DNA of 62,958 bases, the filler included. It is 6 parts of 6 records of this genome, joined end to end, with 100 filler letters (N's around TTAATTAATTAA, not from the genome) between each part and the next. Parts side by side here need not be neighbours in the genome. Positions count along the whole stretch, not along the records: positions 22,812 to 39,539 come from SRR22947727_2850; 5 more parts are not named here. The stretch is one strand, 5' to 3'. The number at the start of each line of letters is the position of its first letter. Positions within the stretch are counted from its first letter, which is position 1. Made by a program: the position numbers and the translations under genes. This document shows positions 23,409-48,027 of the stretch, piece by piece. The notes under the pieces are model-generated. The model had not been told where the DNA came from. It saw only the letters and a list, made by a program, of their open reading frames with translations, and did no database searches.

Positions 23409-23411
23409 TAT

Positions 23412-27192: not shown

Positions 27193-27193
27193 A

Positions 27194-27586
27194 TTAATAT
27201 TCCTTTACTAAAACGATTGCAGTTGGTTCATAGTCTTTCATCACTTTTTCCCAACCCTTTCTGCCTATAATTTCAACCGCTTCACATCGGTATAATATAG
27301 ACCATTTTCTTATCTTTGGCTCTACCTCTAACAGTGTTTTAAGGTTACCTCCTGCAAGCCAAAACCGCAGTGTCCTGCGTTGAGGGTAACTGACAATCTC
27401 AGTTACAATTGCACTATCTTTTAATGCCCATAACTGAGCATCACCTCTTTTGACGATATCTATAACTTGTTCGAAAGTATGACTATTGTGAGCATACCTA
27501 AGAGCATCAGTAATCCATTTTCTGCACCGATTAGCATTAGCCGAAAACGATATATGCGTAGGATCTAGTGGTCGTAGCACTTGCAT
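27194..27586 (-). CDS. GNAT-like phage protein (P22 gp14 / T7 gp13-like position); start uncertain
   Basis: QLW, AIVTEI, LAGG and GRKGW motifs; lies directly before the ejection genes. Confidence 0.6.
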   Translation of the reverse strand: MQVLRPLDPTHISFSANANRCRKWITDALRYAHNSHTFEQVIDIVKRGDAQLWALKDSAIVTEIVSYPQRRTLRFWLAGGNLKTLLEVEPKIRKWSILYRCEAVEIIGRKGWEKVMKDYEPTAIVLVKEY

Positions 27587-27836
27587 GATTTAATGTCGCC
27601 TGCCCCTTTTGCCTGCCAGTTACATGAATATTTTCTGTAGAGGCATCGCTAGTTGTTGGCATGAATAAAATGACACTGTCATCACCTATTCGTGCATCGT
27701 ATAAAGTTGTCGTGGCTGAACTATTTGTAAGAGTTATATTGCCAGTAGAATTGATCTTCCCGTTTAATATATTGTTGACGACATTCGATATCTCTCGAGG
27801 TGTTCCGCCATTTATGGGTAAGTTTAAATAACTCAT
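27537..27836 (-). CDS. Small phage tail-associated protein
   Basis: Coupled to the tail gene; LNGKINSTG motif; beta-rich. Confidence 0.65.
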   Translation of the reverse strand: MSYLNLPINGGTPREISNVVNNILNGKINSTGNITLTNSSATTTLYDARIGDDSVILFMPTTSDASTENIHVTGRQKGQATLNHASATTTRSYAYIVFG

Positions 27837-29317
27837 CGCCTACCTAAAACCTGAATGTCTAATTCATAACCTGATATTTTTTCAAATGCCCCATTAAAAG
27901 CATTGTCTATATCAAACTGTATCGTATGAAACCTTCCATTAGATCTTGTTGGTATAAAGCCCTCATTGTTTAATGAACCCGCTGTACCATCTGTAAAAGG
28001 ATCTTCAATAGCTATTAAGTTTACTCCTGAACTATCTATGCCATTTGCCATAGTGTTTCTTGACTTTAATGTGACAGTGATAGTGCCACCATCAAAGTAA
28101 GGATAAATACGATTTATGTTTGTAAGCCTGCCAGTCGCAAACTCTTTTTCTCCTAATACAAGTTGTGCAGGAAGAGATACTCCTTCAGTGAAGAAAGCTA
28201 TTGCATTATCTTTAGCACCACCAAAAACAAATTGACCACCTCTAAAGGCTCTACTATCTAAAGAAAATGTAAGGTCGTCTATTGATGAATTTACATTGTC
28301 TAAGGCTTCCAATGTGTATGCAGGAGTTTGGAAACTGCCCAACATATCATGCGTAACTTCGGCAAAAGACCATCTTTTAACAGCATAATTGTAGAATAAT
28401 ATTCTATCAGGGTTTCCATCACCAGTTGGATAGCCCCACGCAACTATACTTCTTGTGGGGTCTATACTTGCTGTAATTCTATCGGCATTTGATATCTTCA
28501 AATCATCATAAAAAAACCTATTTACCTTCTCAGCACCGATTGGAATACTTTGCTGACCATTCCAAAAGTAAAAACCATCTTCAGCTAAATAAAATATTTC
28601 TGACGGGCTAAGACTTGCGTATGCACCTTCAAAAGCTAGACCTCTCTCAGTTTCTACAGTGTCAAACTGAAATATTAATGGACTGCCGACATATGTCATT
28701 CTGACTATGGCATTATCCATAAATATAATACCATATTCACCGCCCACTAAGCCTTTAACATGACCCTGATCAGGTATTTCCTGAAAATCTGACTGATTAG
28801 TTCCTGCTGTCCAACTTGTCTCATCATTTATAGCTGACCATGTAACCCTGCTTTCACCACCTGAGTAACCAGTGACAACAAAGTCTCGAACAACCGCCAC
28901 ATATCTTGCTTGTGGGGCTGTAGCAGACAGATCAGCAAATTGAGTTCCGCCTGAGGCTATAAACTGCAATCTTTGTGACGTATCTCCTGCAACAATAATT
29001 TTATTGCCAAAGACACAAAAATTCCAATATTGATCAGTTCCTAATGAATAACCACCCGACTTTGATACGTCATCTAACTGACTGTTACTTGCATTAAAGC
29101 GATAAAGTTTGCCTGCATCTCCTGCATATAACTCCACTGATCCAGTGCTGTCCTTTTTAGAAAACAATCCTTGAATACGACTATCGCCTGCTAAAGAAAA
29201 ACTTCCTAAATTTTTAACCGCAGAATATCCAACCGCAGAAGGTATAACATTTTTTGCCACCTGAAGAGGACTTGCTATAGCCTGCTGATCAGGCAACCAT
29301 TCACCAAAATCTATCAT
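27833..29317 (-). CDS. Tail stabilization/nozzle protein (P22 gp10 / tail tubular B-like)
   Basis: FGEWLPD start, WSAIND..W, beta-propeller-like repeats, about 490 aa; ATGA overlap with the upstream gene. Confidence 0.75.
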   Translation of the reverse strand: MIDFGEWLPDQQAIASPLQVAKNVIPSAVGYSAVKNLGSFSLAGDSRIQGLFSKKDSTGSVELYAGDAGKLYRFNASNSQLDDVSKSGGYSLGTDQYWNFCVFGNKIIVAGDTSQRLQFIASGGTQFADLSATAPQARYVAVVRDFVVTGYSGGESRVTWSAINDETSWTAGTNQSDFQEIPDQGHVKGLVGGEYGIIFMDNAIVRMTYVGSPLIFQFDTVETERGLAFEGAYASLSPSEIFYLAEDGFYFWNGQQSIPIGAEKVNRFFYDDLKISNADRITASIDPTRSIVAWGYPTGDGNPDRILFYNYAVKRWSFAEVTHDMLGSFQTPAYTLEALDNVNSSIDDLTFSLDSRAFRGGQFVFGGAKDNAIAFFTEGVSLPAQLVLGEKEFATGRLTNINRIYPYFDGGTITVTLKSRNTMANGIDSSGVNLIAIEDPFTDGTAGSLNNEGFIPTRSNGRFHTIQFDIDNAFNGAFEKISGYELDIQVLGRR

Positions 29318-29940
29318 TGCCTTAACCAAACCTCACTTCCAACATTTTGAGTTGTCCATACTTCTGAGCCAATATTTTGTATTGCCCAAACCTCTGATCC
29401 TTCTTCAACCTCAACCCAATCTTCACCAATGATTTTTGCGGTAACATCAGAACTTGCCAAAGCACTGCCAGTAGCTGTCGTAAACACCTCAAAGTTAGCT
29501 GTGGCTTCCTCAGTGGCTACTGTTGTCGCACTCGCATCCATATCAGCAATTAAAATAGGTGTTGCTGTAGCTGTGCCACTTACAGATACACTTGCTGTTA
29601 CTGTCGGCAATATCCTTAAACAAGATGCCGATACTGTTGCACTGACACTTCCATTAGCAACAAGTGTTACTTCATAATTAGCAGTAGCTGATACAGTTCC
29701 AATTGATGCTGAACTTGCTGTTACCAAAAAGACTGTATTTGCAGTCGCTGTTACTGTTGAAGCAGTCGATGCACTAGCACTAGCAACTTGTATTCTTACA
29801 GCACTAGCACTTACACTGGCTGATACTGAGGCTGTCGCACTTGCCTCATGTAAAGTTAAATTGTCTAGCTGTTCTAGTGTTCCATAAACATCAAGAGCAT
29901 CAATGCTCCCCCAACTATCTAACTGTTCTAAGGTAGCCAT
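29314..29940 (-). CDS. Ala/Ser/Thr-rich structural protein
   Basis: Low-complexity core; C-terminal GSEVW repeated three times. Confidence 0.65.
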   Translation of the reverse strand: MATLEQLDSWGSIDALDVYGTLEQLDNLTLHEASATASVSASVSASAVRIQVASASASTASTVTATANTVFLVTASSASIGTVSATANYEVTLVANGSVSATVSASCLRILPTVTASVSVSGTATATPILIADMDASATTVATEEATANFEVFTTATGSALASSDVTAKIIGEDWVEVEEGSEVWAIQNIGSEVWTTQNVGSEVWLRQ

Positions 29941-29949
29941 AATAAAACC

Positions 29950-30336
29950 TTAATCAGCAGAAATTGTTAAAGAACCACTTGCTACTTTTAATATATCTCC
30001 ACTTGCTATAACTTTTGATGATGTAAATGCACCATGAAATAAAAGGTTGCCTGAACTACTGGCATCAAAGATTGCCCAATGCGACACTGTACCCCATGCA
30101 CCAGTCGCAGGGTCAAACTCAACACTTGCATTACTTGCTATTGATCCTGAAGATGCAGAAGCAAAAGTAATTGCTTTTCTTGAGTAGTTGTTACCAGTTA
30201 ATTCTGTACCTGAATTATCATCGGCAAAACTTCCAGTAGATAATCCTAAATAAACTGCTGAGGGAGCAGACGTTGAGGCTGTTCCAGTAAAGTGATCTAG
30301 AAATTTAAGTTCTAGATAATCTGACATTGCTGACAT
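29950..30336 (-). CDS. Conserved phage structural protein
   Basis: MSDYLE..LDH, VYLGL, WGTVSHWAIFDA.SSGNLL. Confidence 0.7.
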   Translation of the reverse strand: MSAMSDYLELKFLDHFTGTASTSAPSAVYLGLSTGSFADDNSGTELTGNNYSRKAITFASASSGSIASNASVEFDPATGAWGTVSHWAIFDASSSGNLLFHGAFTSSKVIASGDILKVASGSLTISAD

Positions 30337-30345
30337 TTATTTCTC

Positions 30346-30984
30346 CTATGATGCAGACGATGATTGTTTTGCGTAGATTGATGATATGTGCAAAGCACCA
30401 GTTCCATAGTGAGATCTTTGTTCGTCTTTTCTTATCTCTTCTATAGATCTTGTAAACTTAGCATCATAAGTTGATGCCCTTTGTTCATCCATTAAATAGG
30501 TGTAAGCCTCAACCAATGCCCCTGATAAATAAGCATCAGGATGACGAGTTAACATCACATTTGTTGCATTGCTATCTGATAGGGCAGTGAGGCTACCGAT
30601 ATAAATAATTTCGGCTGTGTAGTTATCGTCAGGTATAGGTCTGATCTTTAACTCACCACCAACAATAGAATAGGCTGAAGGTCTGCCACTCCCGCCAGTG
30701 TAGGCAGTATCTAAAGCTGTAGGACTTTTATATTCTAATACGACATTTGGACTTGTATTTAGCTTAATCTCTCTGACCTCTCTCATGTCAGTGGGAAGGG
30801 CTATAAACTCATCACCGCTTGTCAATGTGGCAGTCGCTCTTTTTTCCTGATCTCTAGTCTCTAATTCTCTAGATAATCGTGCTTCAGCTAACTGGATAAA
30901 GTTAGGGATCTGATCATCAAGATCTGTTCTAGCTAGAAAGTTAGCTACCGCAGTTTTTAATTCTGAATATGTTGATATGCTCAC
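30346..30984 (-). CDS. Head-tail adaptor (tail tubular A-like)
   Basis: TYSELKTAVANFLAR.DL..FIQLAE.RL.RELE; PDAYLSGAL. Confidence 0.78.
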   Translation of the reverse strand: MSISTYSELKTAVANFLARTDLDDQIPNFIQLAEARLSRELETRDQEKRATATLTSGDEFIALPTDMREVREIKLNTSPNVVLEYKSPTALDTAYTGGSGRPSAYSIVGGELKIRPIPDDNYTAEIIYIGSLTALSDSNATNVMLTRHPDAYLSGALVEAYTYLMDEQRASTYDAKFTRSIEEIRKDEQRSHYGTGALHISSIYAKQSSSAS

Positions 30985-31313
30985 ATCGAGCCTCCGCCAG
31001 TTCTAAAAAATCTATTTTCGCTATCGTTAAGCCACCGCTTCCACTTCTTAGAGGCTTCAGGGTTATCTTTTGGATCTCCAAACTTTTGCATAAGTTCTAG
31101 ATATAAATTGTTTGGTATCTCGGCAACGTGTTGCCAGTGTCTTTGTGTATTGCCAATCAAAGATCCTTTTTCGTAGTCATTTGCTTTTCTTTTGTTAGCT
31201 TCCAAAACCGCTTTAATATGCTGTTTTGTCTCGATGGTGTAAGTGCCATCGTTATTGTCATGCCAAAAAGTTTCTTTCTGCGAATATGGATTTCTTGATA
31301 ATAGTCTAGACAT
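30981..31313 (-). CDS. Conserved hypothetical phage protein
   Basis: HVAEIP and WLNDSENRFFRT; homologous to 39790-40095; start revised to MSRLL. Confidence 0.75.
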   Translation of the reverse strand: MSRLLSRNPYSQKETFWHDNNDGTYTIETKQHIKAVLEANKRKANDYEKGSLIGNTQRHWQHVAEIPNNLYLELMQKFGDPKDNPEASKKWKRWLNDSENRFFRTGGGSM

Positions 31314-31330
31314 TGTTTCCCCTATAAATA

Positions 31331-31356
31331 GAAAGGGCGAAATTAATCGCCCTCTC
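31331..31356 (-). terminator. Terminator after the capsid gene
   Basis: GAGAGGGCGA...TCGCCCTTTC followed by a T-rich tract on the minus strand. Confidence 0.7.
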
Positions 31357-31367
31357 ATCGCTAGTTA

Positions 31368-32321
31368 TTAAGCACCTGATAAACCAATAACTGCACCATG
31401 AGCTTTTGGGGCAGTGGGCATCAAAACAAACTCCGACAAAATTTGTTCTTTAATTGCGTCTCCTGTGCGAGCCAACGTTGTCTTTGTAAAGTTTCTGCCA
31501 TTGAGTGTACCGATCTTTATGTGATCAGGATCAATAACAAATAACTTGTCATTAGACATAAATCTTGAAGGTGTTAACTCAAGAGTTCCAAAATCTGTTA
31601 AGTAAACAGAAGTTGCACCCACAAATGAAGGGGCTTGACCCTGAGTTGTGTTCACCTGATTTGTTACAAGATTTGTTCCTGACTGACTGAGGTCAGAAAT
31701 ATTTGCCTTATTCGTGGCATCACAAACTAAAACTCTCGGCTTACCGCCATCTTGCCATGCCTGAGTTACAGCATCGTCAATTTTGGCTAAAGTTAAAGCC
31801 TCTTCAGTTCCAGTTAAATCTGCAACATCAGAACCATCACCAGTACCAAATGAGATATCCGCAGGGTCTGCTGACCCGTTAGTCACCCATGTAATAAGGG
31901 TAGCTGTCTTACGAGGCTCAGAGCCTGACTTAGCTACGTTAAGATCTCCGATAATCTTCTCGATGTCTCTTCTTAACTCAAGTCCTTTTAACACTGATTG
32001 GTAAGCACTTTCCTTCGCTCTTCCTGCCTTATCAACAGCTTCCAATGTTCCTGAGATTGCAAAGTCTTTTCCTGCTATCTGAGTGTAGTTGTTAAGTCTT
32101 GTTGTTGCAGTTGGAGTTGCGTAAGTTGCATCCGCCCCTTCAGAAAGACTGTTTTGTCCTGCTGAAGCTAGTTCCTGAACTTGCCACTCAACGAGTGTGC
32201 CATTCACTGTTTCTTTTTTTGCTAGTGAAAAAATTGGTGTTTCATCACTATCGATCTTATAGATAATATCCGCAAGTTGCTCTTTCTCACCAACTGCGGT
32301 TGCGGTTGTATGTGTAGCCAT
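31368..32321 (-). CDS. Major capsid protein
   Basis: EQLADIIY.I...ETP, EWQ..EL, NYTQI, ELRRDIE, YLTDFG; follows the scaffold gene. Confidence 0.88.
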   Translation of the reverse strand: MATHTTATAVGEKEQLADIIYKIDSDETPIFSLAKKETVNGTLVEWQVQELASAGQNSLSEGADATYATPTATTRLNNYTQIAGKDFAISGTLEAVDKAGRAKESAYQSVLKGLELRRDIEKIIGDLNVAKSGSEPRKTATLITWVTNGSADPADISFGTGDGSDVADLTGTEEALTLAKIDDAVTQAWQDGGKPRVLVCDATNKANISDLSQSGTNLVTNQVNTTQGQAPSFVGATSVYLTDFGTLELTPSRFMSNDKLFVIDPDHIKIGTLNGRNFTKTTLARTGDAIKEQILSEFVLMPTAPKAHGAVIGLSGA

Positions 32322-32334
32322 TTAAATTTCTCCT

Positions 32335-33333
32335 TTAGGCTGATTTGTTTAAAAGTAGTTCCACAGCACCTTCTATAGTGCTGTTATTATTAAAACGTTT
32401 CATCATGTCTTGATTACGTTTTGATACAACTTCAGACTTTGTTTTCGGAGAACCTGCTTTAACCATTTTAGGGGCAGTCTTAACCTTCTTTTTGGCTTGA
32501 GTTTTGCCACCCATTAACTCATCATACAACATTGCCTTCCTCAAAGTTACAATGGCTCGATGATCACTTGCCTGAGCAATTTCATCATCGGTGTAACCCA
32601 TATGGGATTTGGCATATGAGATCACTTTTGACCTCTCAGCTTCTCTGACCTTTTCATCTCTCCACGCAGGGATCTTATCGAGCATTGTATCAAACTCAGC
32701 CTTTAGGTGATTTTGATATTGTGCTTGTACTTCCGCCTGCTGTTGAGACATAATAGCCTGCTGTTGGTGCTGTAGTTTAGCTAAATTGTTTTGTTGAATT
32801 TGGTATTCTGCGTGAATACTTGCAAACTCTTCATTGGTTTTTGTTCTTCGCAGTTCTTCCCAATTAGGCTCAGGCACTCTTAATGCTTGCTCCAATTGCT
32901 GAAGTCCTCTCGCATACTCATCTCTCAACCGCTTCGTTTCAGCACTTTCTGCCTCAATCGCTTTGCTCTTTTGTGAGACTTCGTTCATGCGTTTATGAAA
33001 AGTCCGCTCTCTCTGATAACCACTTAGAGCCTCTTCCAAAGTTACCTCTGCCTCTTCTCCATCAATCTTGACTTTGTAGAGTTGGACTTCTTCTTCGACT
33101 TCTTCGTCATCATCTTCCTGATCGGTTGTATCTTCTACTTCTTCGCCCTCATCGGAGATATCTTCTTCATAGACTTCCTCTTGCTCTGTTGTTTCTGATA
33201 CTTGAGCCTCTTCTTCAGGCTCGTTTATTGCCTCAACTTCAGGGTTAGCTTCTGCTTCCATTTGAGGTAATAATCTGTCAATTGCTTCGTTTACTGATAT
33301 AGAACCGCTCTCTTTCGAGTTTACATTTTCCAT
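32335..33333 (-). CDS. Capsid scaffolding protein
   Basis: Acidic N-terminus, VKIDGEEAEVTLEE..SGYQR, coiled coil, DHR...L.KAM. Confidence 0.82.
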   Translation of the reverse strand: MENVNSKESGSISVNEAIDRLLPQMEAEANPEVEAINEPEEEAQVSETTEQEEVYEEDISDEGEEVEDTTDQEDDDEEVEEEVQLYKVKIDGEEAEVTLEEALSGYQRERTFHKRMNEVSQKSKAIEAESAETKRLRDEYARGLQQLEQALRVPEPNWEELRRTKTNEEFASIHAEYQIQQNNLAKLQHQQQAIMSQQQAEVQAQYQNHLKAEFDTMLDKIPAWRDEKVREAERSKVISYAKSHMGYTDDEIAQASDHRAIVTLRKAMLYDELMGGKTQAKKKVKTAPKMVKAGSPKTKSEVVSKRNQDMMKRFNNNSTIEGAVELLLNKSA

Positions 33334-33350
33334 AATTGTTTTCCCTTATA

Positions 33351-33623
33351 TTATTTTGATTTCCCAATTAGTCTGTCTAACTGAGCCTTAGCAATCCTTC
33401 CATTAGCACTAACATTCTCTATTCCTGATTTAAGTGCCTGCAAAGACTGGTAAAGATAGTAAATGCGTTCTCTCTCCTCACTGTCCTTCAGTGGTGAGTT
33501 TCTCCACGCATCTAAAAATTGTTTTTCTAAATTTTCAAAGACCTCTATAAAGACTACGTTCTTGAGAAGAATGTCAGCCTTACCTCCCTTTTCTAGATCC
33601 TCTCTTGCACTGCCTTCCTGCAT
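33351..33623 (-). CDS. Conserved small phage protein upstream of the scaffold
   Basis: WRNS...ERE; homologous to 42118-42342. Confidence 0.72.
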   Translation of the reverse strand: MQEGSAREDLEKGGKADILLKNVVFIEVFENLEKQFLDAWRNSPLKDSEERERIYYLYQSLQALKSGIENVSANGRIAKAQLDRLIGKSK

Positions 33624-34747
33624 TAAGATCTCCTAAAAGGTGTAAATCCACTTAGCCCCATTTGGTTTTGATATGCTGAAGGTCTATAGGCAAACTGACT
33701 TACAAAGTTCTGATTAGCTTTGTTAAAGTCAAAACCGCTTGGTAAATTCAACGGGGCTTTATCTAGAGTTGTAGCCCTATAATAAGCCTCATTAGCAGGA
33801 AATGGATTAGGACTGTTTGGTCTATTTGGTCTTGTTGTATCTAACCTACAAGCCTGCAAATCGTCATCAAACCTATAGCCATCAGGACATATTGGCTGTC
33901 CGCTAACTGGATTAGTTGTGGCAGGCTTTATCGGCTCACTTTCACCACCGCCCATATTATTCATACCGCCAAAACTCATTTCTGAAGGTGAGGTGTTACT
34001 AAAAATACCATATCCATCGACAGCACCAGTAGGGCTTCCCATACCTATCCCAAAACCAGTTGTGCCAGTTACCTGACCGCCTGAATATGTTGGTGTGTAG
34101 CCCATATTGATGTTATCAATTGTGTTTTGTGCCCCCATTTTACTTATGTTGTTTATTACAGCACCTAAAGGGGTAGGGATGTTAGGAAACATTCCCTTTT
34201 GAGCCATATTATTTACATTTGACATAGAAGTCATTTGATCGGCTGTTGTAAAATCGCTTACATCAGTTGGATTAGCAAAGCCAGTCACACTATCAGGAGA
34301 GTAACCAGTTGTGCCAATAGATGCCATTGCCTCAGGAGATAATCCTGAGTTTGTCATATTAGCTAACCCAATGTTTTGTGCTAAATTTTGCAATCCAGTT
34401 TGCTGTATGTCATATGGGTCTATTTGTTGAACACTAAAGTTCTGTGCGTTTGGATAACTAAAATTATCCATATTACTAAAATTGTCTTGAGCATTTGTAT
34501 TCGCTGATACATTTTGTTGGTCGGCTACTGAACTATCTAGCCCCATATCGCTAGAACTATCATTGTTACTAGAAGTATCGCTTACACTGGCTTGAGCAGA
34601 TACATCATCATCCATACCCATAGAACTACTGTCATCTCCACCGCCTCCGCCTCCATCATCAGATCCAAAGCAATACATTGACTGCTCGATTAGATCGGCA
34701 GGATCATATCCCTCAAGTAGTTTCTTTATTTGAAATCGCATAGCCAT
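33623..34747 (-). CDS. Low-complexity protein with CFG/poly-Gly N-region and C-terminal CPxGxxFDxxxxxC motif
   Basis: 374 aa, rich in Ser/Asp/Asn/Gly/Met; overlaps the acyltransferase gene by 35 nt. Confidence 0.72.
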   Translation of the reverse strand: MAMRFQIKKLLEGYDPADLIEQSMYCFGSDDGGGGGGDDSSSMGMDDDVSAQASVSDTSSNNDSSSDMGLDSSVADQQNVSANTNAQDNFSNMDNFSYPNAQNFSVQQIDPYDIQQTGLQNLAQNIGLANMTNSGLSPEAMASIGTTGYSPDSVTGFANPTDVSDFTTADQMTSMSNVNNMAQKGMFPNIPTPLGAVINNISKMGAQNTIDNINMGYTPTYSGGQVTGTTGFGIGMGSPTGAVDGYGIFSNTSPSEMSFGGMNNMGGGESEPIKPATTNPVSGQPICPDGYRFDDDLQACRLDTTRPNRPNSPNPFPANEAYYRATTLDKAPLNLPSGFDFNKANQNFVSQFAYRPSAYQNQMGLSGFTPFRRS

Positions 34748-35150
34748 TTTTCCTTTTTGATGGTCTGTACCATTGACCCTTTACATTTGTTCCAAAATTC
34801 TTTGTTACAAATTCCCTCATAGAGCGAACCATTTCCCTTGTTCTGCCAAATGGACTAATCCAATCCGCAAACCATAAATTATCACCTGATTGCCAATCCT
34901 TCGGCTGTATCAAATAATTTTCATGTTTTAGCTTGTGCAGGATCTCATCGGATACCCATGCCCATGTACAAACACCAGTTGGTTTTGAGTCAAAATAGAA
35001 AACCCTATACTGCCCATATCTAACTGGCGGGATAAATATTCTTTTTATGGAGTGCATCTTATAGTGATGGTGGGTCATCGAATGTGCCACCAAAAATAAG
35101 ATATCTCCTAAGTAATTATGCTCTCGGTAAATTGGTTGAGATTTCTGCAT
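34713..35150 (-). CDS. RTX toxin-activating lysine acyltransferase family protein (HlyC/TAAT)
   Basis: LGxxxxLxxxSxxH (S24/H27), PPxxxGQY, PxGxCTWA, DWQSGDNLWFADWISPFG (D96), matching HlyC DWTSGDRKWFIDWIAPFG. Confidence 0.9.
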   Translation of the reverse strand: MQKSQPIYREHNYLGDILFLVAHSMTHHHYKMHSIKRIFIPPVRYGQYRVFYFDSKPTGVCTWAWVSDEILHKLKHENYLIQPKDWQSGDNLWFADWISPFGRTREMVRSMREFVTKNFGTNVKGQWYRPSKRKNGYAISNKETT

Positions 35151-37161
35151 CAGTAACCGCCTTTGCCACCCTTAACTCGGCTTCCATAGTTAGTTCTTGC
35201 CTTCGCATCTCTAACTCTGCCTGCATCTTTTCTCTTGCAAGCTGAATGTCCGCTTGTGCCTTTTCTCTAGCAAGTGCAATATCTGCCTCTATCTTCATCT
35301 TCTTTGCTTCAATCTCAGCCTGAGCCTTTTGCATCTCAGCTTGTGCTACTGGATTTTCTTGCCCTTGCTGTTGTTGCTGTTGCATTTGCATTTGCATCTG
35401 CACAGCCTGAGGCGGGTTAAAGAACTGATTAGCATCTTTAAATCCTCCAATTTCGGTAATTTGTCGTAAGGTATTAACGTATTGAGATAAGTTACAAATC
35501 GGATTGTCTGCTCCCAAAGTTTGCAAAATAGTTTCTTGCTTTTGTGCAATAGCTTGGAGAAAACTGATTTTTTGTTCGTCATCGGCTGTTCCTAACCCTA
35601 CATTAACAATTACATCAAAACCGCTAGTGCCTTCCTGCGGATCAATCGCTATAAATTCATTTCTTAATCTTACTATGCGAGGCTGTTGCTGATAGGCAGA
35701 TATCAGGTGCAATATACCCTTAAATAAATCCTTAACACCAGTCTCAGCCATTGTTCTTGCGTAACTCTCTAGTTTTTGCTGAGAGCCTCTAACAGTAGCA
35801 CTAACAGCCGAAGCGGTTGTACTTTGCAGAACTGACGGGTCAAGACCTTGACTTGCTTCACTTATGCCCGTTCTAGATGTTTTTACCTGATCTAGATATT
35901 GCATCAGTGGCTGTATTTCACCACCAATACCCTGACCAGTTAAAGGCTGAACTGCACCCGCTTGTCTTGTCCTGATAATACCGCCTGCTGTGCCATCCAA
36001 TAAATCGTCAAGATTAACCTGACCTTCAACAGCCACCATTCTCGGCAATACTGAGTGATATGTGCTGTCAAGATATTGTCTTAACAATGTTGATTTAATT
36101 GTCTGCAAGTCTTGTGTTAGATCGAATAAAGATCTTCCAACAAGTCTATGAGGCATAAGTATTGGTGATATAACTGCGAAAGGAATGTAATCTACAACTT
36201 CATTTTCTAATATTACATCTCCGCCATCACCAATAGATAAGATCCTACGCATTTCAGCGATGCCATCGTCATCATAGTCAACCTTCATTGTGATATCATG
36301 TACCACAACTTCATGTTGTGACGGGTCTACTGGATCATTGCCTGACTGACTTTCTAGATCTTCAAAACGTCTTTGTCTTTCCTCATCTATCTCGCCATCA
36401 ATCATGCCTGCATTGTCTTCAATGAGTTTTCTGTCATATCCCATAGACACCAAATCACTCACTGACATAGTTGTCTTATGGCATAAAAAATAACAGTCCT
36501 CTAAAGACTTAGCCCTGCGGTTAAATAAAAACTCCTCAGGTGGCACATTCTCAATCTTAATCTTGCCTGACTTCTTAGTGATCTTAACCTTTAAATCATA
36601 ACTGTTAAGAACCTGAACTTCTTCACCCATTTCATTTATAACAGTGGTGTAGTTCTCTTGTCTTTCAACAACCTCAATGTCAGGGTTAGCCAATAACAAA
36701 GCCAACTCTTCTTCAGTTAAACCCTCATATTCTTCTTCCTGAATTGTAGATGTCTCATCCCAACAATACTTAACAACACCTAACTTAAACATTAGGCTGT
36801 CCTTAAACCAGTTATACATAATCCTATAACCATCATTGTCGTTATTGATGATATAGTTCACATAATCTGTTAGCTGTTCAGCTTTATCAACATCCTCAGC
36901 AGTTCTCGGAGCATACCTGACATACTTATCGGAACTGGTAAAAATACGCATAAGCGATGGCATGATCTGCTCAACTGCATCAGCAAAGTCAGTGGATACC
37001 ACAGAGCTTCTGCCTTCAATCTCATTGCCAAATGGCTCACCCAAATAATAGTCAATAGCCTTTAATCTGTCTGCTGAATACTCAGTTTCAAAGTGATTTT
37101 GGCTATCGGTAATTTCAGACTGGATAATAGATCCCAATCTTTCATCTGTCATTTTTGCCAT
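35116..37161 (-). CDS. Portal protein
   Basis: YYLGEPFGNE.EGRSSVV, VPPEEF, P..HRLVGRS, RTG; Gln-rich coiled-coil C-terminus; 681 aa. Confidence 0.9.
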   Translation of the reverse strand: MAKMTDERLGSIIQSEITDSQNHFETEYSADRLKAIDYYLGEPFGNEIEGRSSVVSTDFADAVEQIMPSLMRIFTSSDKYVRYAPRTAEDVDKAEQLTDYVNYIINNDNDGYRIMYNWFKDSLMFKLGVVKYCWDETSTIQEEEYEGLTEEELALLLANPDIEVVERQENYTTVINEMGEEVQVLNSYDLKVKITKKSGKIKIENVPPEEFLFNRRAKSLEDCYFLCHKTTMSVSDLVSMGYDRKLIEDNAGMIDGEIDEERQRRFEDLESQSGNDPVDPSQHEVVVHDITMKVDYDDDGIAEMRRILSIGDGGDVILENEVVDYIPFAVISPILMPHRLVGRSLFDLTQDLQTIKSTLLRQYLDSTYHSVLPRMVAVEGQVNLDDLLDGTAGGIIRTRQAGAVQPLTGQGIGGEIQPLMQYLDQVKTSRTGISEASQGLDPSVLQSTTASAVSATVRGSQQKLESYARTMAETGVKDLFKGILHLISAYQQQPRIVRLRNEFIAIDPQEGTSGFDVIVNVGLGTADDEQKISFLQAIAQKQETILQTLGADNPICNLSQYVNTLRQITEIGGFKDANQFFNPPQAVQMQMQMQQQQQQGQENPVAQAEMQKAQAEIEAKKMKIEADIALAREKAQADIQLAREKMQAELEMRRQELTMEAELRVAKAVTDAEISTNLPRA

Positions 37162-37337
37162 TATTTTTTCTTCCTTGCGACAGCCATATTGTCCACTAAA
37201 TTAGGATACTTTCTTCCCGCTTTTTTGGCTCTTTGTTTGGCTGAGGCGATTTGGTTTTTTGATAGGGGGGTGGATTTTTTCAATGACTTCGGTCTTTTCT
37301 TGTTCCAAATCGGCACGTTTTTTTTGGATTTCGTCAT
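37161..37337 (-). CDS. Small basic phage protein
   Basis: AKQRAKKAGRKYPNLVDNM motif; stop overlaps the portal ATG; start may be 37337-37355. Confidence 0.65.
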   Translation of the reverse strand: MTKSKKNVPIWNKKRPKSLKKSTPLSKNQIASAKQRAKKAGRKYPNLVDNMAVARKKK

Positions 37338-37452
37338 CGACATCACATTTTCCACTTCTTTTACATAGCTTAGGGGTTACACATCCACTGCAAGTCACCA
37401 ACTCTAATATTGGAGCTTCCTTTTTCGGTCTGCGATAAAGCCTGACAATCAT
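37201..37452 (-). CDS. Small Cys4 protein (C-x2-C-x5-C-x5-C)
   Basis: CSGCVTPKLCKRSGKC; ATGA overlap with the upstream ORF. Confidence 0.55.
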   Translation of the reverse strand: MIVRLYRRPKKEAPILELVTCSGCVTPKLCKRSGKCDVDDEIQKKRADLEQEKTEVIEKIHPPIKKPNRLSQTKSQKSGKKVS

Positions 37453-37556
37453 TTGGATTTCTTCTTAACTTTCTTTTTAACTTTGGCTTTGTAAACACTA
37501 GCCTTCTTCATACCCTCTTTTGTGTAAGGGAATTTCTTTCCACCGATATTAGGCAT
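37449..37556 (-). CDS. 35-aa Lys-rich microprotein (absent from the ORF track)
   Basis: MPNIGGKKFPYTKEGMKKASVYKAKVKKKVKKKSK; overlaps neighbours at both ends. Confidence 0.65.
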   Translation of the reverse strand: MPNIGGKKFPYTKEGMKKASVYKAKVKKKVKKKSK

Positions 37557-37740
37557 CTTTCTTTTTCCTTCCTCTTTTCTTGAGCGGAACTACATTACTC
37601 ATAGTCACCCCTCTAGTGGTTTGAACTGGAATAGGTTTAGGCATTTCAACCTCAATCTCTTCAGGCTTAATTTTACCCAATAAACACTTACATCGAGCAG
37701 TACATTTCCACTCGTAAGTGCAAACATCACAATGTTGCAT
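37549..37740 (-). CDS. Small Cys4 protein (C-x2-C-x5-C-x5-C)
   Basis: CDVCTYEWKCTARCKC; RBS AAGGGG; basic tail. Confidence 0.6.
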   Translation of the reverse strand: MQHCDVCTYEWKCTARCKCLLGKIKPEEIEVEMPKPIPVQTTRGVTMSNVVPLKKRGRKKKDA

Positions 37741-37779
37741 AAGTTTCCCCTTACGTTTTTTAGATTTAAAATTTTTTGA

Positions 37780-39539
37780 TTAGGTCAGTAGACCATAGCC
37801 CCTTAGTTGCTGAGGGGTTGCCTCTGTAAGCGACTGGATGTTTCGTCTAAATCCTTCGGATATAGGTGTTGTGTTACTAGATCGTACCTGCCCCTGATTT
37901 CCAATGGTGTCACTGAGGAGACCTGATTGTTGTGTTCTTCCAGTAGATCCTGCAACTGGTTGTTCAGAGAGATTTTCTGCTGTGCTGATAAAGTCCGCAG
38001 TGTCTCTATTCCTAAAACCTTGAGAACCTTCTTCGAGAAATCTTCGTGTAGCTTTTGTTCTGATTCCATCATTACCTTGCCATTTCATAATTACAAGATC
38101 GGGAAAGCCTAAACTTTCATCCCACCCTGATTTCTTCCATTGGGCAACAAGCCTCTTATACTTCTGCTCACTACCACCAAATTCGGCATCCCTTACATAT
38201 TTAGGATCGAATTTTACCCTACCGAGTTCATTAAAGCCAAATTCATTATAATAGTTTGGCAAAAACCCTTTTGGATGTGCTTTTGATGGCACTGCATAAG
38301 CATCTAATACTGTAGCACCATTTTCAATTCCATTCAAGATAGAAGAGGGTACAGATACACCTTTTGAGGCATATCCTAACTCATTATTCATTACACCAAC
38401 TATACCTACTTCATTTTTAGTTAGTGCAGGGTGAGTAAACCCATAATCAGCTTCATAATCAGTATTTTTCTTCAATCCATAATAGACTTTACCGCCAGTT
38501 TTAGCATCCCCTAAACCATAGAAAACTAATGAACCATCTTTAGCACCATCTTGTATTTCTTTAAGGCTATACTTCGTTAAACTTTCAGAAAGTATATTGT
38601 CCTCTAATCCATCTACAATCTCAATCGGCTTCAACCCACCCTGATTAACGGGAGTTAGTGTAGATCTCCAATTAGAGTTTACTGTATCAGTAATTAATTG
38701 TGCGTGTCTTGCAGAATTAATGTTTCCTATTCTTTTCGCACTCATTCCCTGAGCTATTTCAGGTGTTATTTCTTGAACTAAATTTGCCATTGAAAATGCT
38801 CTAGCATCGCTTCTTATCGGCTTATTAGCAGAACGTCTTGCACTAAAAAATTCAGGAAACATAACTTCAGCAGGTACTGGCATATCAAATTTTGCTACTG
38901 GCTTTCCAAAAAGTGCATAATCGTAACTTATATGAGGAACTCCACCTATATCAATAGTTTTCACTGGCTTTCTAGTTTTATCTAATTCCAATAAAATTAA
39001 ACTATCCATAGGATTAGTTCCCGCTTCATACGGGTTAATGGTTTCTTGTAATATTCTATTAATGTTAGGAGAACCTAAATCTCTACCTCTCCTACTGTTT
39101 AGAGCTTGTGCAAAATAATTTGCTGTTTCAAAGTCAAGACTGCCTAAATATTTTTCTAAGTCAGGTGAATTAAACCCAACAAAATCTTGTAACTTTTCTG
39201 CACCCTTTTTGGTTTGACCTATTGACCTAACTAAATTATCTAACTTAACAACATTTTCAGGTTTTATGTAAGAGTTATCTATAAAAGACTTAACTTGCCT
39301 TCCAAAAATTTTCCTCATTGTTTTATTAGATACTTGAGAAGGCAATTTACCAGACGTTTGAGGGTTCATAGCTGTTACAACAGCATAATCTGCTCCTCTA
39401 CTAGCTTGAGATGTCGCCTGACCTTTTCCTAAATTAGCAAATGCAAGCTCTTTGTCTAAACTGCTTCTCATTAACGGGAAGTCAGAACCGCCTTGCAATG
39501 GAACTGGCTCTATTTCAGCACCATCTATGCCCCTGAAAA
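37780..39539 (-). CDS. Large phage protein (5' truncated) with a C-terminal GNAT-like domain of polyvalent-protein type
   Basis: Frame open to the contig edge; KGV...GIENGATVLDAY...FLPNYYNEFGFNELGRVKFDPKY. Confidence 0.65.
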
Positions 39540-39639: not shown

Positions 39640-39790
39640 TAGCCCTTACCATATTAGCACGTACTCTTAGCTCTCTATTCAGTCTATTCTCTGTTAAGGT
39701 GATAAACGTAGGGATCAATGTTGTAAGATCATCCCTGTTGAGATAATTTGCTACAGTAGCCTGTAGCTCTGAGTACGTGGATAGAGCCAT
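39640..39790 (-). CDS. Head-tail adaptor, N-terminal part
   Basis: TYSELQATVANYLNRDDL, homologous to 30346-30984. Confidence 0.8.
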
Positions 39791-40095
39791 TACAGATGGC
39801 TTTCATGTGTGCGGAGAAAACGATTTTCAGGATCATTCAGAAGCTGCTTGATCTTGGGCCAATCATTTTTATTCATTATGTCAACGCCAAGCTCGCGTTT
39901 CCATTTTTCAACTACAACCAGCGGAATGCTTGCAACTTTACGCATACCGTTGTTTGACTGTGTTCCGTACATAGAGTCGTTGTTAAGTTCTTTCTTGTTA
40001 AGCTCTAGCAACGGTGCTACGTCCTGCACATTTTCAAGGACAACATTGTCCGTGCTGTGATCGTAGTTGAATTTGGTTTTAACTGGATCGTTCAT
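39790..40095 (-). CDS. Conserved hypothetical phage protein
   Basis: KVASIP and LNDPENRFLRT; homolog of 30981-31313. Confidence 0.75.
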   Translation of the reverse strand: MNDPVKTKFNYDHSTDNVVLENVQDVAPLLELNKKELNNDSMYGTQSNNGMRKVASIPLVVVEKWKRELGVDIMNKNDWPKIKQLLNDPENRFLRTHESHL

Positions 40096-40116
40096 CTTTT
40101 GCCTCTTAGTTAGAAC

Positions 40117-40141
40117 GGGGGAGAACAGGATGCTCTCCCCC
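40117..40141 (-). terminator. Hairpin/terminator after the capsid gene
   Basis: GGGGGAGA...TCTCCCCC; weak U tract. Confidence 0.55.
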
Positions 40142-40154
40142 TTTAGTCCTAGCC

Positions 40155-41105
40155 TTACGACAGATCGTAGACTGCGCCGAGAGCTTTCTCGTTCTTGACA
40201 ACGAGAGTATGCTCAGCAATGATTGCCCGCTGCTCGCCGTCAGACGTGCTAGCAACTTCCCGCTGGAAGAACGGACGAAGATATGCAATTGCATAGTACT
40301 CAGGGTCAAGCAGCCAGACATCACGGCTACGCTGGAAGCGGTTAGGAACCACTGCCATTTCACCGAAGTCACTGACGTACACGTCCATACCACCGATGAT
40401 CCGCTGATCACCAATGTCGTTGAAGTTACTGACGCCGGAAGCGCCACCAACACCAACAAAGCTGGAGAACGTCTGCTTCTGCGAGGGGGCCATCATCAGA
40501 TACTTGATGTCGGCACCTTCATCAAAGGCGCTAAGAATAGACGCCTTCAGCAGAGATTCAGTAAAGGTACGAGGCGTGCCGTCGGTACGCGCAGTACCGT
40601 TACCAGCACCTGAACCACCTGATCCAGCACTGACGTTGGTAGCTACCCAAGAGGTAAGCGACCCAAGTTTACGAACAGTGGTGTCCGCAGCCATTGCCGT
40701 CTTAGTCTGGTTGACGCCAACATACGCACGTTCCATATCACGCTTCAGTTCTTTAGCGCGTTTGGACATCTGGTACGCAAGCTCTTCTTTACGACCAGCT
40801 TTGGATACAGCGTCCAGAGTGCCAGAAACGAGCGTCGTTTTCAGGCTGATCTGGCAGATGTTACCAAGGCGAGACGTAGCGGTCGGCTCAGCAGCAGCAA
40901 GCGTCGAGCCTTCTTCGTGGTGGTTATTAGCAGCGTCCGCAAGCGAATCTGTCTGCCATTCGTGATTAACCGCAACCGCATCTTCGCGACCACCCATTGA
41001 CATAAACGGCGTATCAGTCGGAGAGATATCGTAGATTACATTCTCAAGGTCTTCACGAAGACCCTTCGCTGAGAACGTAACAAACACACCAGTAGGCTGT
41101 GCCAT
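40155..41105 (-). CDS. Major capsid protein
   Basis: REDLENVIYDISPTDTPF, HEWQTDSL, ELKRDME, YVSDFG; homologous to 31368-32321. Confidence 0.9.
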   Translation of the reverse strand: MAQPTGVFVTFSAKGLREDLENVIYDISPTDTPFMSMGGREDAVAVNHEWQTDSLADAANNHHEEGSTLAAAEPTATSRLGNICQISLKTTLVSGTLDAVSKAGRKEELAYQMSKRAKELKRDMERAYVGVNQTKTAMAADTTVRKLGSLTSWVATNVSAGSGGSGAGNGTARTDGTPRTFTESLLKASILSAFDEGADIKYLMMAPSQKQTFSSFVGVGGASGVSNFNDIGDQRIIGGMDVYVSDFGEMAVVPNRFQRSRDVWLLDPEYYAIAYLRPFFQREVASTSDGEQRAIIAEHTLVVKNEKALGAVYDLS

Positions 41106-41124
41106 AGTTTAGTTCCTTTCAAGG

Positions 41125-42111
41125 TTAAGTGATAAAGTCCAACAAAACATTTGCAGCATCTCGCTGACTACCTGTTTTTGCAAGTCTCTCTCGCTTAGCC
41201 TGAACTTCCCTACGTGAGCGTTGAGCTTTTGTTCTGGGAGTTCCGGCTTTCACAACCTTTGGAGCGGTCTTTTTAGATTTCTTAGCTGGCCCCTTAAAAG
41301 CCTTGTCCTGCATCATAGCTTTGTGCAGCACTAGGATAACACGGTGGTCAGCTATTCCATCAACTTCCTGTGGAGAAAATCCTAACCCAAGGGCGTAGTT
41401 ACGCACATCGTCCTTAAAGTTAGAGTCTGGATCAGAATACTGGGGCAACGCCTGTGCAAGAAGTTCAGCTTCTTTCTGAATCTTCTCTTGCAAAATTTGT
41501 CCCATTTCTGATTCAGTCTGCTGCTGAACACGCACTCGCTCGTTCTGCAACTCAGAAATTCTCTCCTTCGTTTCTTGGTACTCCAGACGCTTCTCCATGT
41601 ACTCCATTGGATCGTTGTCTTTAAGCTCAGCCCAGTTTACGTTCTGAAAGCGTTGTAGCTCTAAGTTCTGGTTCTGTGCCATGTTACCAAGAACTTGAGC
41701 ATATTGCTCACGCTCCTGTTGAACGGCTTGGAGATTAGCTTCATAGGCTTTTCTCTGTTCCGCTAGAGACTGCGATTTACGGGTATAATCCGCTTGCCGC
41801 TGATAGCCGTTCCGTAGCTCATCAAGATTAACCTCGACTTCTTCACCATCAACTTTAACGGTGTAGCTTGGAGAGGTTTCTGTCTCAGCTACTTCTTCGT
41901 CTACCTCGTAGTCAACTTCCTCATACTCTGTTTCATCTTCCGTCGCTTCATATTCCTCTTCAGCGGCTTCTGTTTCATACTCTTCAGACTCTGAGGGGGC
42001 TTCGATAGTTTGTTCTGGATTGGTGTCTTCATCACTTCCAAACATGACATCGAACATGTTAAGCTTTGGCTCGGTGACTTCCCCTTCGGGATTGGTCTGT
42101 GCCTCACTCAT
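41125..42111 (-). CDS. Capsid scaffolding protein
   Basis: VKVDGEEVEVNLDELRNGYQRQADYTRKSQ. Confidence 0.85.
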   Translation of the reverse strand: MSEAQTNPEGEVTEPKLNMFDVMFGSDEDTNPEQTIEAPSESEEYETEAAEEEYEATEDETEYEEVDYEVDEEVAETETSPSYTVKVDGEEVEVNLDELRNGYQRQADYTRKSQSLAEQRKAYEANLQAVQQEREQYAQVLGNMAQNQNLELQRFQNVNWAELKDNDPMEYMEKRLEYQETKERISELQNERVRVQQQTESEMGQILQEKIQKEAELLAQALPQYSDPDSNFKDDVRNYALGLGFSPQEVDGIADHRVILVLHKAMMQDKAFKGPAKKSKKTAPKVVKAGTPRTKAQRSRREVQAKRERLAKTGSQRDAANVLLDFIT

Positions 42112-42117
42112 TTGTCG

Positions 42118-42342
42118 TTACCTTTCTGTGTTTTCTATTTTGTAATCGTCCATAACAGCTTTGAGATCATCTATTACAGAACCCAAAGCTTGTAGTTTCA
42201 TCCAGCAGTTTTCTCGCTCTTGTGTAGATTGAGACATTCTCCACTGGATTACCAAGTCATTATTGAGCCTTTCTATGGTAAGTTTGAAAGCTTCATTGTC
42301 TAGTATTAGACCGGCTTGGTGTGCTTGTTCAGTAGGGTTCAT
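42118..42342 (-). CDS. Conserved small phage protein
   Basis: A..ILDNEAF, QWR, ERE; homolog of 33351-33623. Confidence 0.72.
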   Translation of the reverse strand: MNPTEQAHQAGLILDNEAFKLTIERLNNDLVIQWRMSQSTQERENCWMKLQALGSVIDDLKAVMDDYKIENTER

Positions 42343-42506
42343 TTGTGCTTCTGCATATACCCTTCAGTACCGGCGTACTTAGAGTTGCCGTAGATGTCTC
42401 CACCCATGCGATTACCGCTGGGCTTAGGCGGCGCAGTGTTACCACCTTTAGAGGGGACAGGGCGGTTACCAACTTTGCCCATCTTTGGGCTAGCATAGTC
42501 TTTCAT
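42339..42506 (-). CDS. 55-aa basic Gly/Pro-rich protein (absent from the ORF track)
   Basis: MKDYASPKMGKVGNRPVPSKGGN...YMQKHK; RBS AAGGA; ATGA overlap with the next gene. Confidence 0.6.
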   Translation of the reverse strand: MKDYASPKMGKVGNRPVPSKGGNTAPPKPSGNRMGGDIYGNSKYAGTEGYMQKHK

Positions 42507-42521
42507 GGTATTTCCTTTCTG

Positions 42522-42770
42522 TTACCATTTTTTGCAAGACCAGTATCTTGCGCTTAGTTTAGAGGGAGGGCTAGTGTCGCACTTGTGTCTGGCCCTGAAA
42601 CTTTTTCTACGTTTAGGCTGATCTTTTTTAATGCTCATATTAGGATCACCAAAACGGACCAATTTTACTGCGCCTCCTTTTTTTGCCAAGACTGCAAACT
42701 TCTTGTTCTTACCGGGAGTTCTCTTAGGTTTGTTATAGCCGGAGAACTTTTCTCCTCTGTATGTAATCAT
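42522..42770 (-). CDS. Small basic conserved viral protein
   Basis: KLVRFGDPNM, RRKSFRARHKC, SARYWSC motifs common in marine viruses. Confidence 0.8.
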   Translation of the reverse strand: MITYRGEKFSGYNKPKRTPGKNKKFAVLAKKGGAVKLVRFGDPNMSIKKDQPKRRKSFRARHKCDTSPPSKLSARYWSCKKW

Positions 42771-43255
42771 GTTTTGATAATAAAATTGATTGGTTGAAGT
42801 TTGATAACATCTGTGCCTGTGGCAGCACTGGCAGTTACAGAAGTACCTAGAACAAAACTACCGCCGACACCTACAGGAGAATAAGTGCGGAAATCTGGAA
42901 CCAAAAAGTTTGCACCACTTGTGCCAAAGGTGTTACCTATTACGTTATACAAAGCAGCATAGGTAGACGTAGAAAATGCAGAACCATCGCACAACAGCCA
43001 ATCATTGATACCACTGATGGTCTGTGTAGTAGGTATGCTGTTACTAGCATACATAATCACGGAACCAACGGGAAAACCTAGTTTGTTTAGCTGGGCAGAC
43101 GTTTGGTTAACAGCCGTGGTTCCAAGGTTAGGAAACTGCGTCTGAAGAACCGACTTGACCAAACGAAGATGATCATCGCCTTCTGAAAGAGGATCACTAG
43201 CAGAGGGGTTTGAAGAGTTGAGTTGGCTAATATAACTAGCAGATTCTACAGTCAT
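42767..43255 (-). CDS. Tail-collar domain protein
   Basis: GDDHLRLVK; PVGSVIMYA, WLLCDGS..S..TYAALYNVIG.TFG, VPDFR. Confidence 0.85.
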   Translation of the reverse strand: MTVESASYISQLNSSNPSASDPLSEGDDHLRLVKSVLQTQFPNLGTTAVNQTSAQLNKLGFPVGSVIMYASNSIPTTQTISGINDWLLCDGSAFSTSTYAALYNVIGNTFGTSGANFLVPDFRTYSPVGVGGSFVLGTSVTASAATGTDVIKLQPINFIIKT

Positions 43256-43292
43256 GTCTTACTCCGTTAAGCTTATTTTAACACTTTTATAT

Positions 43293-43877: not shown

Positions 43878-43891
43878 TTTATCTATCCTTA

Positions 43892-47849: not shown

Positions 47850-48026
47850 TTAACCCTCCAAGAAGGTAACATTGACCGTGGCTGTTCCAATACTGGCTAC
47901 TTTTTCACCGTCAGTTGCAGTTGGAGAACTATCTCCCCTGATGACAAAGTAACCCGCATCTGCTGGCTCTATCAAAGTACCTGCTGCCGTGGCCGTAGGA
48001 TTTCCGTTGATTACGATATTTACATC
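47850..48026 (-). CDS. Tandem paralog of 47517-47849, C-terminal part
   Basis: DVNIVINGNPTATAAGT...RGDSSPTATDGEKVASIG...FLEG*. Confidence 0.7.
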   Translation of the reverse strand, partial: DVNIVINGNPTATAAGTLIEPADAGYFVIRGDSSPTATDGEKVASIGTATVNVTFLEG

Positions 48027-48027
48027 G

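Follow-up and report, generated by a model that had tools for sequence, protein, structure and literature searches.

The window examined here, 62,958 nt of contigs joined with runs of N between them, contains a gene for a toxin-activating acyltransferase (TAAT) of the HlyC family in the head operon of a podophage. The gene lies on the contig at positions 22812-39539 (SRR22947727_2850; 16,728 nt, free of N), between a portal gene and a gene for a 374-aa low-complexity protein, here called g374. The encoded enzyme has an intact catalytic dyad and is under purifying selection; its gene keeps a fixed order with its neighbours in related viral contigs, is replaced in some loci by a GNAT gene, and recurs with a similar partner in a second phage group. 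Since the pairing is conserved, a GNAT takes the place of TAAT in its slot and the second phage group has the same pairing, g374 is the best candidate for the target. We put at about even the chances that TAAT is an active acyltransferase whose donor is host acyl-acyl carrier protein (acyl-ACP) and whose substrate is the protein encoded downstream, with the N-terminal module of the latter as the probable site.

The TAAT gene occupies positions 34713-35150 on the minus strand and encodes 145 aa. An earlier note, made by a model from the letters alone, had assigned this open reading frame (ORF) to the family by its motifs, and the motifs were indeed seen, S24 and H27 in SMTHHHY and D96 in FADWI. 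The comparison with the HlyC profile and the ApxC structure that the note had proposed bore out the assignment. The product matched Pfam HlyC (PF02794) at 100.7 bits (cut-off 25; E 7e-29), over residues 14-115 (profile positions 2-105 of 127), and PF02794 was present in 16 of 16 database homologs. It was also matched to ApxC (4whn) at E 8.3e-13, with 103 residues aligned without gaps. An AlphaFold2 (AF2) model based on 15 close homologs was of moderate confidence only (pLDDT 62.3, pTM 0.55), and the top three Foldseek matches of this model were chains of ApxC 4whn (E 2e-7 to 3.6e-7, TM 0.58), followed by GNAT-fold enzymes. The ratio of nonsynonymous to synonymous substitution rates (dN/dS), calculated outside both gene overlaps for 28 pairs of 8 sequences, was 0.10-0.37, indicating purifying selection on the ORF. 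Because the first five residues, MQKSQ, were in addition conserved in a 15-sequence alignment, the ORF and its start are real. We regard the gene call and the family assignment as practically certain.

In the ApxC alignment, H27 (codon at 35070-35072, minus strand) and D96 (codon at 34863-34865, minus strand) fell without gaps on the catalytic His and Asp of ApxC. Where the earlier note had spoken of a Ser-His-Asp triad, the literature describes a His/Asp dyad, and the passages of Halvorsen et al. on the active site give H37/D107 for CdiC and His24 for ApxC (PMC8510554). We then compared the two columns in an alignment of 49 phage TAAT rows, in which three isolates were entered twice. The column of Asp96 was acidic in every row (D 33, E 16), and the column of His27 contained H in 33 rows, Y in 11, F in 2, W in 2 and a gap in 1.

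The gene is embedded in the head operon. Its start overlaps the 3' end of the portal gene (35116-37161, minus strand; Pfam SU10_portal, E 4.6e-203) by exactly 35 nt, and its 3' end overlaps the start of g374 (33623-34747, minus strand) by exactly 35 nt, just as the earlier note had stated. A scan of IMG/VR with the TAAT alignment yielded 35 loci of 35-99% identity. In all 35, as far as each contig reaches, the order was portal, TAAT, g374, a conserved gene for a 90-aa protein (g90), scaffold and major capsid protein (MCP). At the TAAT/g374 junction of these relatives there was either an overlap of 29-35 nt or a spacer of 8-15 nt.

The slot between the portal gene and the g374-family gene was then surveyed more widely. 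The pool consisted of the best 80 of 264 and the best 80 of 208 contigs from two scans with the C-terminal domain of g374, together with the first 35 loci, and unique g374-family proteins were kept when the contig showed the g374-family gene with its 5' end complete as well as the 3' end of the portal gene (n = 62 loci). The slot held TAAT in 44 loci and a classical GNAT in 6, and it was empty in 12, among them that of the isolate Phage C72C1, with a gap of 5-8 nt between portal and g374-family gene. The slot GNAT, of about 150 aa, scored above the Pfam Acetyltransf_1 cut-off of 20.7 bits (34 bits, E 4e-8, in L088; 22.8 bits in L062) and matched phrog_1249 'acetyltransferase' at E 7.8e-29. Its gene starts 3 nt past the portal stop and overlaps the start of the g374-family gene by 4 nt. 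A profile-profile comparison of the slot GNAT alignment with the TAAT alignment gave no significant likeness. The more distant podophages phiM5 and HTVC106P have neither a TAAT gene nor a g374 gene.

The N-terminal module of the g374-family protein matched the content of the slot in 62 of 62 loci. A TAAT slot was followed by a charged leader of about 25 aa ending in CFG (30 loci), by a direct MGES start (13) or by a Leu-for-Cys variant of the leader (1); a GNAT slot by a distinct leader ending in C[HF]C[GS]G (6/6 loci); and an empty slot by an unrelated module of about 55 aa, KGQPH..LAYIN..GG.G (11 loci), or by MGFGGG (1, Phage C72C1). The active site of the TAATs varied along with these forms: the acid was Glu in 13/13 loci of the MGES form and Asp in 31/31 loci of the leader forms, and the catalytic His was replaced by Tyr in 15 of the latter 31. 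On a tree of the C-terminal 250 residues of the portal (50 rows), the slot types were interleaved. One GNAT locus was nested among TAAT loci with branch lengths below 0.02, a CFG-leader locus and an MGES locus had nearly identical portals, and the KGQPH type appeared in two clades; at least 5 changes of slot type and 9 of N-terminal type were required.

Phage carriage of a TAAT gene is not new in itself. A tblastn search of 50,697 phage records found four with a TAAT (26-27% identity), those of Pelagibacter phages HTVC103P, HTVC104P and HTVC112P and Roseobacter phage CRP-235, and all four were already annotated as toxin-activating or RTX-toxin acyltransferases and are uncharacterised. Together with the window TAAT, they fall in phrog_20210, 'unknown function'. 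In a pelagiphage preprint, 'HlyC' is named in a figure legend only (10.1101/2019.12.14.876532, as far as its text was available), and a term search of the available text of the HMO-2011-type paper describing CRP-235 (PMC9038755) returned no mention of TAAT. Full-text literature, mostly outside subscription journals and without supplements, contained no work on a phage TAAT or on phage virion proteins that carry fatty acyl groups. The remark of the earlier note that it knew of no characterised phage TAAT thus agrees with the literature searched, with the addition that four annotated genomes and one figure legend exist. What is new is the partner and the genomic logic around the gene.

An independent, parallel pairing was found in the HMO-2011-type podophage CRP-235, in which TAAT (gp30) lies in the structural region and is followed by a 491-aa low-complexity protein (gp29), a lysozyme and large proteins. 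Of 35 IMG/VR relatives of the CRP-235 TAAT, 33 were examined, two matches at contig ends being omitted, and in 33/33 loci a low-complexity protein of 424-1057 aa started 1-2 nt past the TAAT stop. These partner proteins begin with M[GS]GG, which continues as poly-Gly in most and as MGGSKK in L125. At the C-terminus, most rows have a tail GF.xP[FY]..T. that resembles the final GFTPFRRS of g374, the exceptions being 6 of the 20 distinct proteins. In the sister isolates CRP-738 and CRP-3, the same slot holds a protein of 151-154 aa without a Pfam family, annotated as 'putative acyltransferase' in CRP-738, and the partner proteins have a leader ending in ..VF(K)GGGG.

This slot protein has a homolog in the window. 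g130 (27194-27586, minus strand), which lies directly upstream of the first ejection-protein gene, matched CRP-738 gp29 and CRP-3 gp28 in BLASTP (E 1e-5 and 2e-5, respectively). It belongs to phrog_22172, of unknown function, and its nearest named clusters in the Protein Atlas were viral GNATs (0.87-0.89), a similarity that serves as a lead only. Comparison of g130 with the TAAT and slot-GNAT alignments (hhalign) gave nothing significant, and neither did a profile search of the PDB. The gene downstream, g373 (26071-27192, minus strand), encodes a putative DNA-ejection protein with the N-terminus MSKGGGGGG (phrog_4287 'DNA ejection protein', E 5.7e-17). From these sequences, g130 and g373 may be a second pair of an acyltransferase-like enzyme and a poly-Gly protein in the same phage.

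The candidate acceptor, g374, always lies downstream of TAAT in the TAAT-bearing relatives and is built of three parts. A conserved N-terminal leader of 28 residues (34664-34747, minus strand; codons checked) ends in Cys26-Phe27-Gly28, which were invariant in 18/18 leader-bearing homologs. An acidic middle of about 235 residues, rich in Ser, Gly and Asn, occupies 33956-34663 (minus strand), and the protein is completed by a C-terminal domain, likewise conserved, of about 110 aa (33626-33955, minus strand), with CPDGY.FD.DLQAC and a GFTPF tail. Even where the flanking genes of two contigs share 90-100% identity, the middle is hypervariable in sequence as well as in length. Over its full length, the identity of g374 dropped to about 40% beside portals that were 90-100% identical. 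The C-terminal domain had 264 relatives in the IMG/VR scan and no tblastn match among the 50,697 phage records, which represent isolated phages. The sole Pfam hints in the family came from two homologs, in which the CP.GY.FD..C hairpin matched CBM_14 below threshold (E 0.011 and 0.04). AF2 modelling of the C-terminal domain was weak (pLDDT 61.5, pTM 0.28) and gave just a hairpin and one helix, and a look-up in the Protein Atlas reached a best score of 0.75, which is no lead. A complex prediction of TAAT with residues 1-60 of g374 (score 0.00, mark 0.34), run without controls and without our alignments, says nothing about binding either way. By inspection, two readings of the leader were dropped: it is charged and has no lipobox, unlike a lipoprotein signal peptide, and it matches the consensus of double-glycine leaders poorly.

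None of the usual partners of a TAAT in toxin activation was found. The single GGxGxD match in the six frames of the contig lies within the poly-Gly run of g374, and the six frames contained no tandem RTX nonapeptides. No Pfam RTX (HemolysinCabind) or ABC-transporter family was found among the ORFs of the contig that were scanned, and the Pfam and PHROGs searches revealed no type I secretion genes among the larger ORFs of this contig, itself a partial genome. These larger ORFs encode phage structural proteins or proteins of no known family. Five whole related viral records, two of them estimated to be at least 90% complete, had no RTX repeats either. These observations agree with the earlier note on the lack of RTX repeats and type I secretion genes on the contig and extend the search for an RTX substrate beyond it. 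The adjacent protoxin and secretion genes of an RTX toxin activation system of the hlyCABD type were not found among the sequences covered here.

We propose the following scheme. TAAT would be a catalytically competent N-acyltransferase expressed with the phage head genes, and it would draw the acyl chain from host acyl-ACP. The host is taken as the donor's source because no phage ACP (PF00550) was found in the five related viral records. The chain would be transferred to a phage protein, most probably to g374, the product of the translationally coupled downstream gene, at or near its N-terminal module. g374 itself would serve in assembly or be a virion protein, internal or ejected, and the acyl group would lend this otherwise hydrophilic protein an affinity for membranes, either in assembly or after ejection. 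Lipidation of a virion or ejection protein is a plausible purpose of the gene pair. Where the acyl chain comes from, which protein and which residue receive it, how long it is and what it serves are all inferred here.

Several observations weigh against this scheme. The first concerns the acceptor. No lysine was invariant in 33 unique g374-family proteins, in some of which the lysines are confined to the leader and the middle and in others to the C-terminal domain. The 20 distinct CRP-235-type partner proteins had no invariant lysine either, and one of them has a single, non-conserved lysine. Thus, an acceptor lysine conserved wherever the enzyme is present, as expected of a TAAT and its substrate, was seen in neither the g374 family nor the CRP-235-type partner family. 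Of what the earlier note had put forward, the orphan TAAT in a podophage head operon and the adjacent Gly-rich protein as the best candidate target have stood; lysines as acceptors, a virion protein as target, a long acyl group and membrane targeting as purpose stay hypothetical. The second concerns the place of g374 in the virion. g374 belongs to no Pfam or PHROG family, and its placement in virions is conjectural. The KGQPH module of one empty-slot locus (L096:4143-4340) resembles the N-terminal part of an 857-aa portal-proximal 'LysM domain-containing protein' of Roseobacter phage CRP-901 (L293:3836-6409; E 6e-4, 43% over 50 residues), a likeness that may faintly hint at an association of g374-family proteins with particles. 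The third concerns the pairing. A protein at the g374 position is present without any acyltransferase in 12 of the 62 loci, including that of Phage C72C1. In HTVC103P and HTVC104P, TAAT lies in the early/replication region beside a Lys-rich 108-aa protein, with no structural gene adjoining, and since the HTVC104P gene has this early position, phage TAATs are not all structural. On the portal tree there were 2 independent pairs per contrast, all of them concordant (sign test, p = 0.5). Moreover, because the TAAT gene and the 5' end of g374 adjoin, slot and N-terminal module would move together by recombination alone. The co-variation of slot and module is, then, suggestive and no proof. Lastly, the catalytic His is Tyr in 11 of the 49 rows and Phe or Trp in 4.

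The lack of an invariant lysine in g374 leads to the alternative that survives best, namely that TAAT is active on another target, such as the portal, the scaffold, a putative ejection protein (g373, g368 or g517) or a host envelope protein, and that g374 is a mere neighbour. g373, which belongs to phrog_4287 'DNA ejection protein', has an invariant Lys3 in the motif M[SG]KGG, which speaks for it; M[SG]KGG is, however, also present in Phage C72C1, which has no TAAT, so that motif and enzyme do not co-occur. The position of TAAT among early genes in HTVC104P also fits a different target, as does its position before a J-like tail protein in 78/78 loci of HTVC112P-type siphophages. These 78 are close relatives (82-100% identity), and the MGG[IV]V start of the tail protein may be there regardless of TAAT. 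On the other side, it is the N-terminal module of g374 that changes with the content of the slot in every one of the 62 loci. In hlyCA, the TAAT gene stands beside the gene for its substrate, immediately upstream. The sections of Halvorsen et al. on CdiC likewise describe an enzyme encoded beside its substrate (PMC8510554). We consider another target clearly less probable than g374, yet the foremost of the alternatives.

A modification of g374 and its counterparts at a residue other than lysine would remove the difficulty with the acceptor in a different way. What is invariant in these proteins is an N-terminal Gly where the leader is missing and Cys-Phe-Gly where it is present, and on this basis TAATs and slot GNATs could attach a lipid within the extreme N-terminal module of a class of Gly-rich virion proteins, internal or ejected, on the alpha-amino group of the N-terminal Gly (MGES.., MGGGGG..) or on the Cys or Gly of the leader (..CFG..). 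We hold this specific form of N-terminal acylation to be unlikely, somewhat more so than a different target.

It could also be argued that TAAT has kept the fold and lost the chemistry, acting as a non-catalytic GNAT-fold partner of g374, that is, a chaperone or assembly factor. The substitution of His27 by Tyr, Phe or Trp, which together account for 15 of the 49 rows, and the lack of a conserved lysine in either candidate substrate would fit such a role. The window TAAT retains both residues of the dyad, however, and the acid is retained in all 49 rows. In classical GNATs, Tyr is the usual general acid, and the protein that replaces TAAT in 6 loci is a GNAT above the Pfam cut-off. As the text of Halvorsen et al. 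on TAAT mutants reports, His-to-Ala changes leave part of the activity under a direct-attack model (PMC8510554), and the His-to-Tyr change in some phage clades is for this reason compatible with activity. Loss of catalysis appears improbable. Equally improbable is an accessory ('moron') enzyme whose substrate, a host factor or small molecule, has nothing to do with virion assembly and whose gene sits in a permissive insertion site next to the portal: the slot is variable (TAAT, GNAT or empty) and the best NCBIfam matches of the slot GNAT are aminoglycoside N-acetyltransferases (weak, 25 bits against a cut-off of 140), but random cargo would not be expected to bring two N-acyltransferase families into a single slot, each of them in tight coupling with one and the same gene downstream, the enzyme/partner pairing recurs in the unrelated CRP-235-type phages, and the TAATs characterised in the portions of PMC8510554 that treat them act on proteins.

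As a whole, the contig is the structural half of a podophage genome, with portal and capsid of the SU10 type. The minus strand carries all of its long ORFs. In the order of transcription, a 572-aa ORF and a 64-aa ORF are followed by the portal, TAAT, g374, the 90-aa ORF, the scaffold, the MCP and several virion structural proteins, and then by g130, three further proteins, two of them assigned to 'DNA ejection protein' PHROGs, and a truncated tail-fibre gene. g90 (33351-33623, minus strand), between g374 and the scaffold, is in phrog_8161, of unknown function, and is syntenic in the relatives. The head scaffolding protein gene lies at 32335-33333 (minus strand; phrog_3927, E 8.8e-47) and the MCP gene at 31368-32321 (minus strand; Pfam SU10_MCP, E 1.8e-75). 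The 572-aa ORF upstream of the portal (37780-39498, minus strand) has a TTG start and no Pfam or PHROG family, and is 79-86% conserved in four relatives (L015, L031, L032 and L035). By portal, the nearest isolate is Phage C72C1 (62.6% identity), followed by LUZ24/PaP3-like and other podophages (33-44%).

Two observations on neighbouring sequences may be added. Several relatives have an MCP gene interrupted by a group I intron, or by two of them (Rfam RF00028, 82-95 bits; cut-off 50), located at L009:4341-4562, L018:4067-4294 and 4596-4805, L026:5909-6130, L037:2623-2846 and 3061-3270, and, in Phage C72C1, L039:10699-10939. The MCP gene of the window is uninterrupted, and the record of Phage C72C1 divides its MCP into two 'major head protein' coding sequences. 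The next contig of the window (39640-48027) is a fragment of a related phage with a higher G+C content, which carries an MCP, a scaffold and a 74-aa protein at the position of g90; upstream of these head genes it has tail-fibre-like genes in place of g374, TAAT and portal.

To our knowledge, the only roles described for TAATs are the activation of RTX toxins in bacteria and, more recently, that of a single class of CdiA effectors. Here, a TAAT under selection has a constant place in the morphogenesis operon of an abundant lineage of marine podophages, where a GNAT can stand in for it and its partner is a Gly-rich protein. If TAAT acylates g374, tailed phages would have a dedicated step of protein lipidation that has not been described previously, in which the most plausible role of the lipid would be to let a protein that is internal or ejected engage the host envelope. 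The known range of substrates of the TAAT family, and possibly the chemistry of the family, would then widen. Since the enzyme and its candidate substrate are encoded by two small adjacent genes, the idea can be tested directly.

In the classical systems HlyC/HlyA, CyaC/CyaA and ApxC/ApxA, an enzyme of the same family and fold is encoded directly upstream of its substrate, as TAAT is upstream of its presumed substrate here; unlike those toxins, g374 has no Gly-Lys site conserved across homologs, and no RTX repeats were found on the contig or in the five related viral records. Among the annotated phage TAATs, those of CRP-235 and HTVC112P are likewise found in a structural module just upstream of a protein starting with MGG. 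They come from an HMO-2011-type podophage and a siphophage, and a further one is an early-region gene of a 54-kb phage, and none of them has the order portal-TAAT-g374. By analogy, the nearest precedent for a TAAT substrate other than an RTX toxin is that of CdiC, a His/Asp TAAT encoded beside the class IV CdiA of E. coli STEC4. In the account of Halvorsen et al. 2021 (PMC8510554), as far as the text available to us goes, CdiC adds 3-hydroxydecanoate to a largely unstructured domain of CdiA, the effector thereby holds the outer membrane of the target cell, and none of the lysines of the lipidated domain is invariant across homologs. CdiA differs in being a secreted bacterial effector acylated on Lys1467 (PMC8510554, same portion of the text), whereas g374 is a phage protein without a known family, proposed here as a candidate acceptor.

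A further likeness, in concept only, is to the entry proteins of animal viruses. VP4 of picornaviruses and mu1 of reoviruses are N-myristoylated entry proteins, modified on their N-terminal Gly by host N-myristoyltransferase (NMT) with myristoyl-CoA. As proposed for g374, the lipid is there attached by a GNAT-fold enzyme to a protein inside the capsid, which is set free at entry and then engages a membrane; the enzyme considered here differs in being encoded by the phage and in belonging to the TAAT family. If acylation at the N-terminal Gly or at the leader Cys or Gly should prove true, g374 and its counterparts would be the first lipid-modified virion proteins of tailed phages, with an acceptor chemistry new to TAATs, and would form the counterpart of the myristoylated VP4 and mu1.

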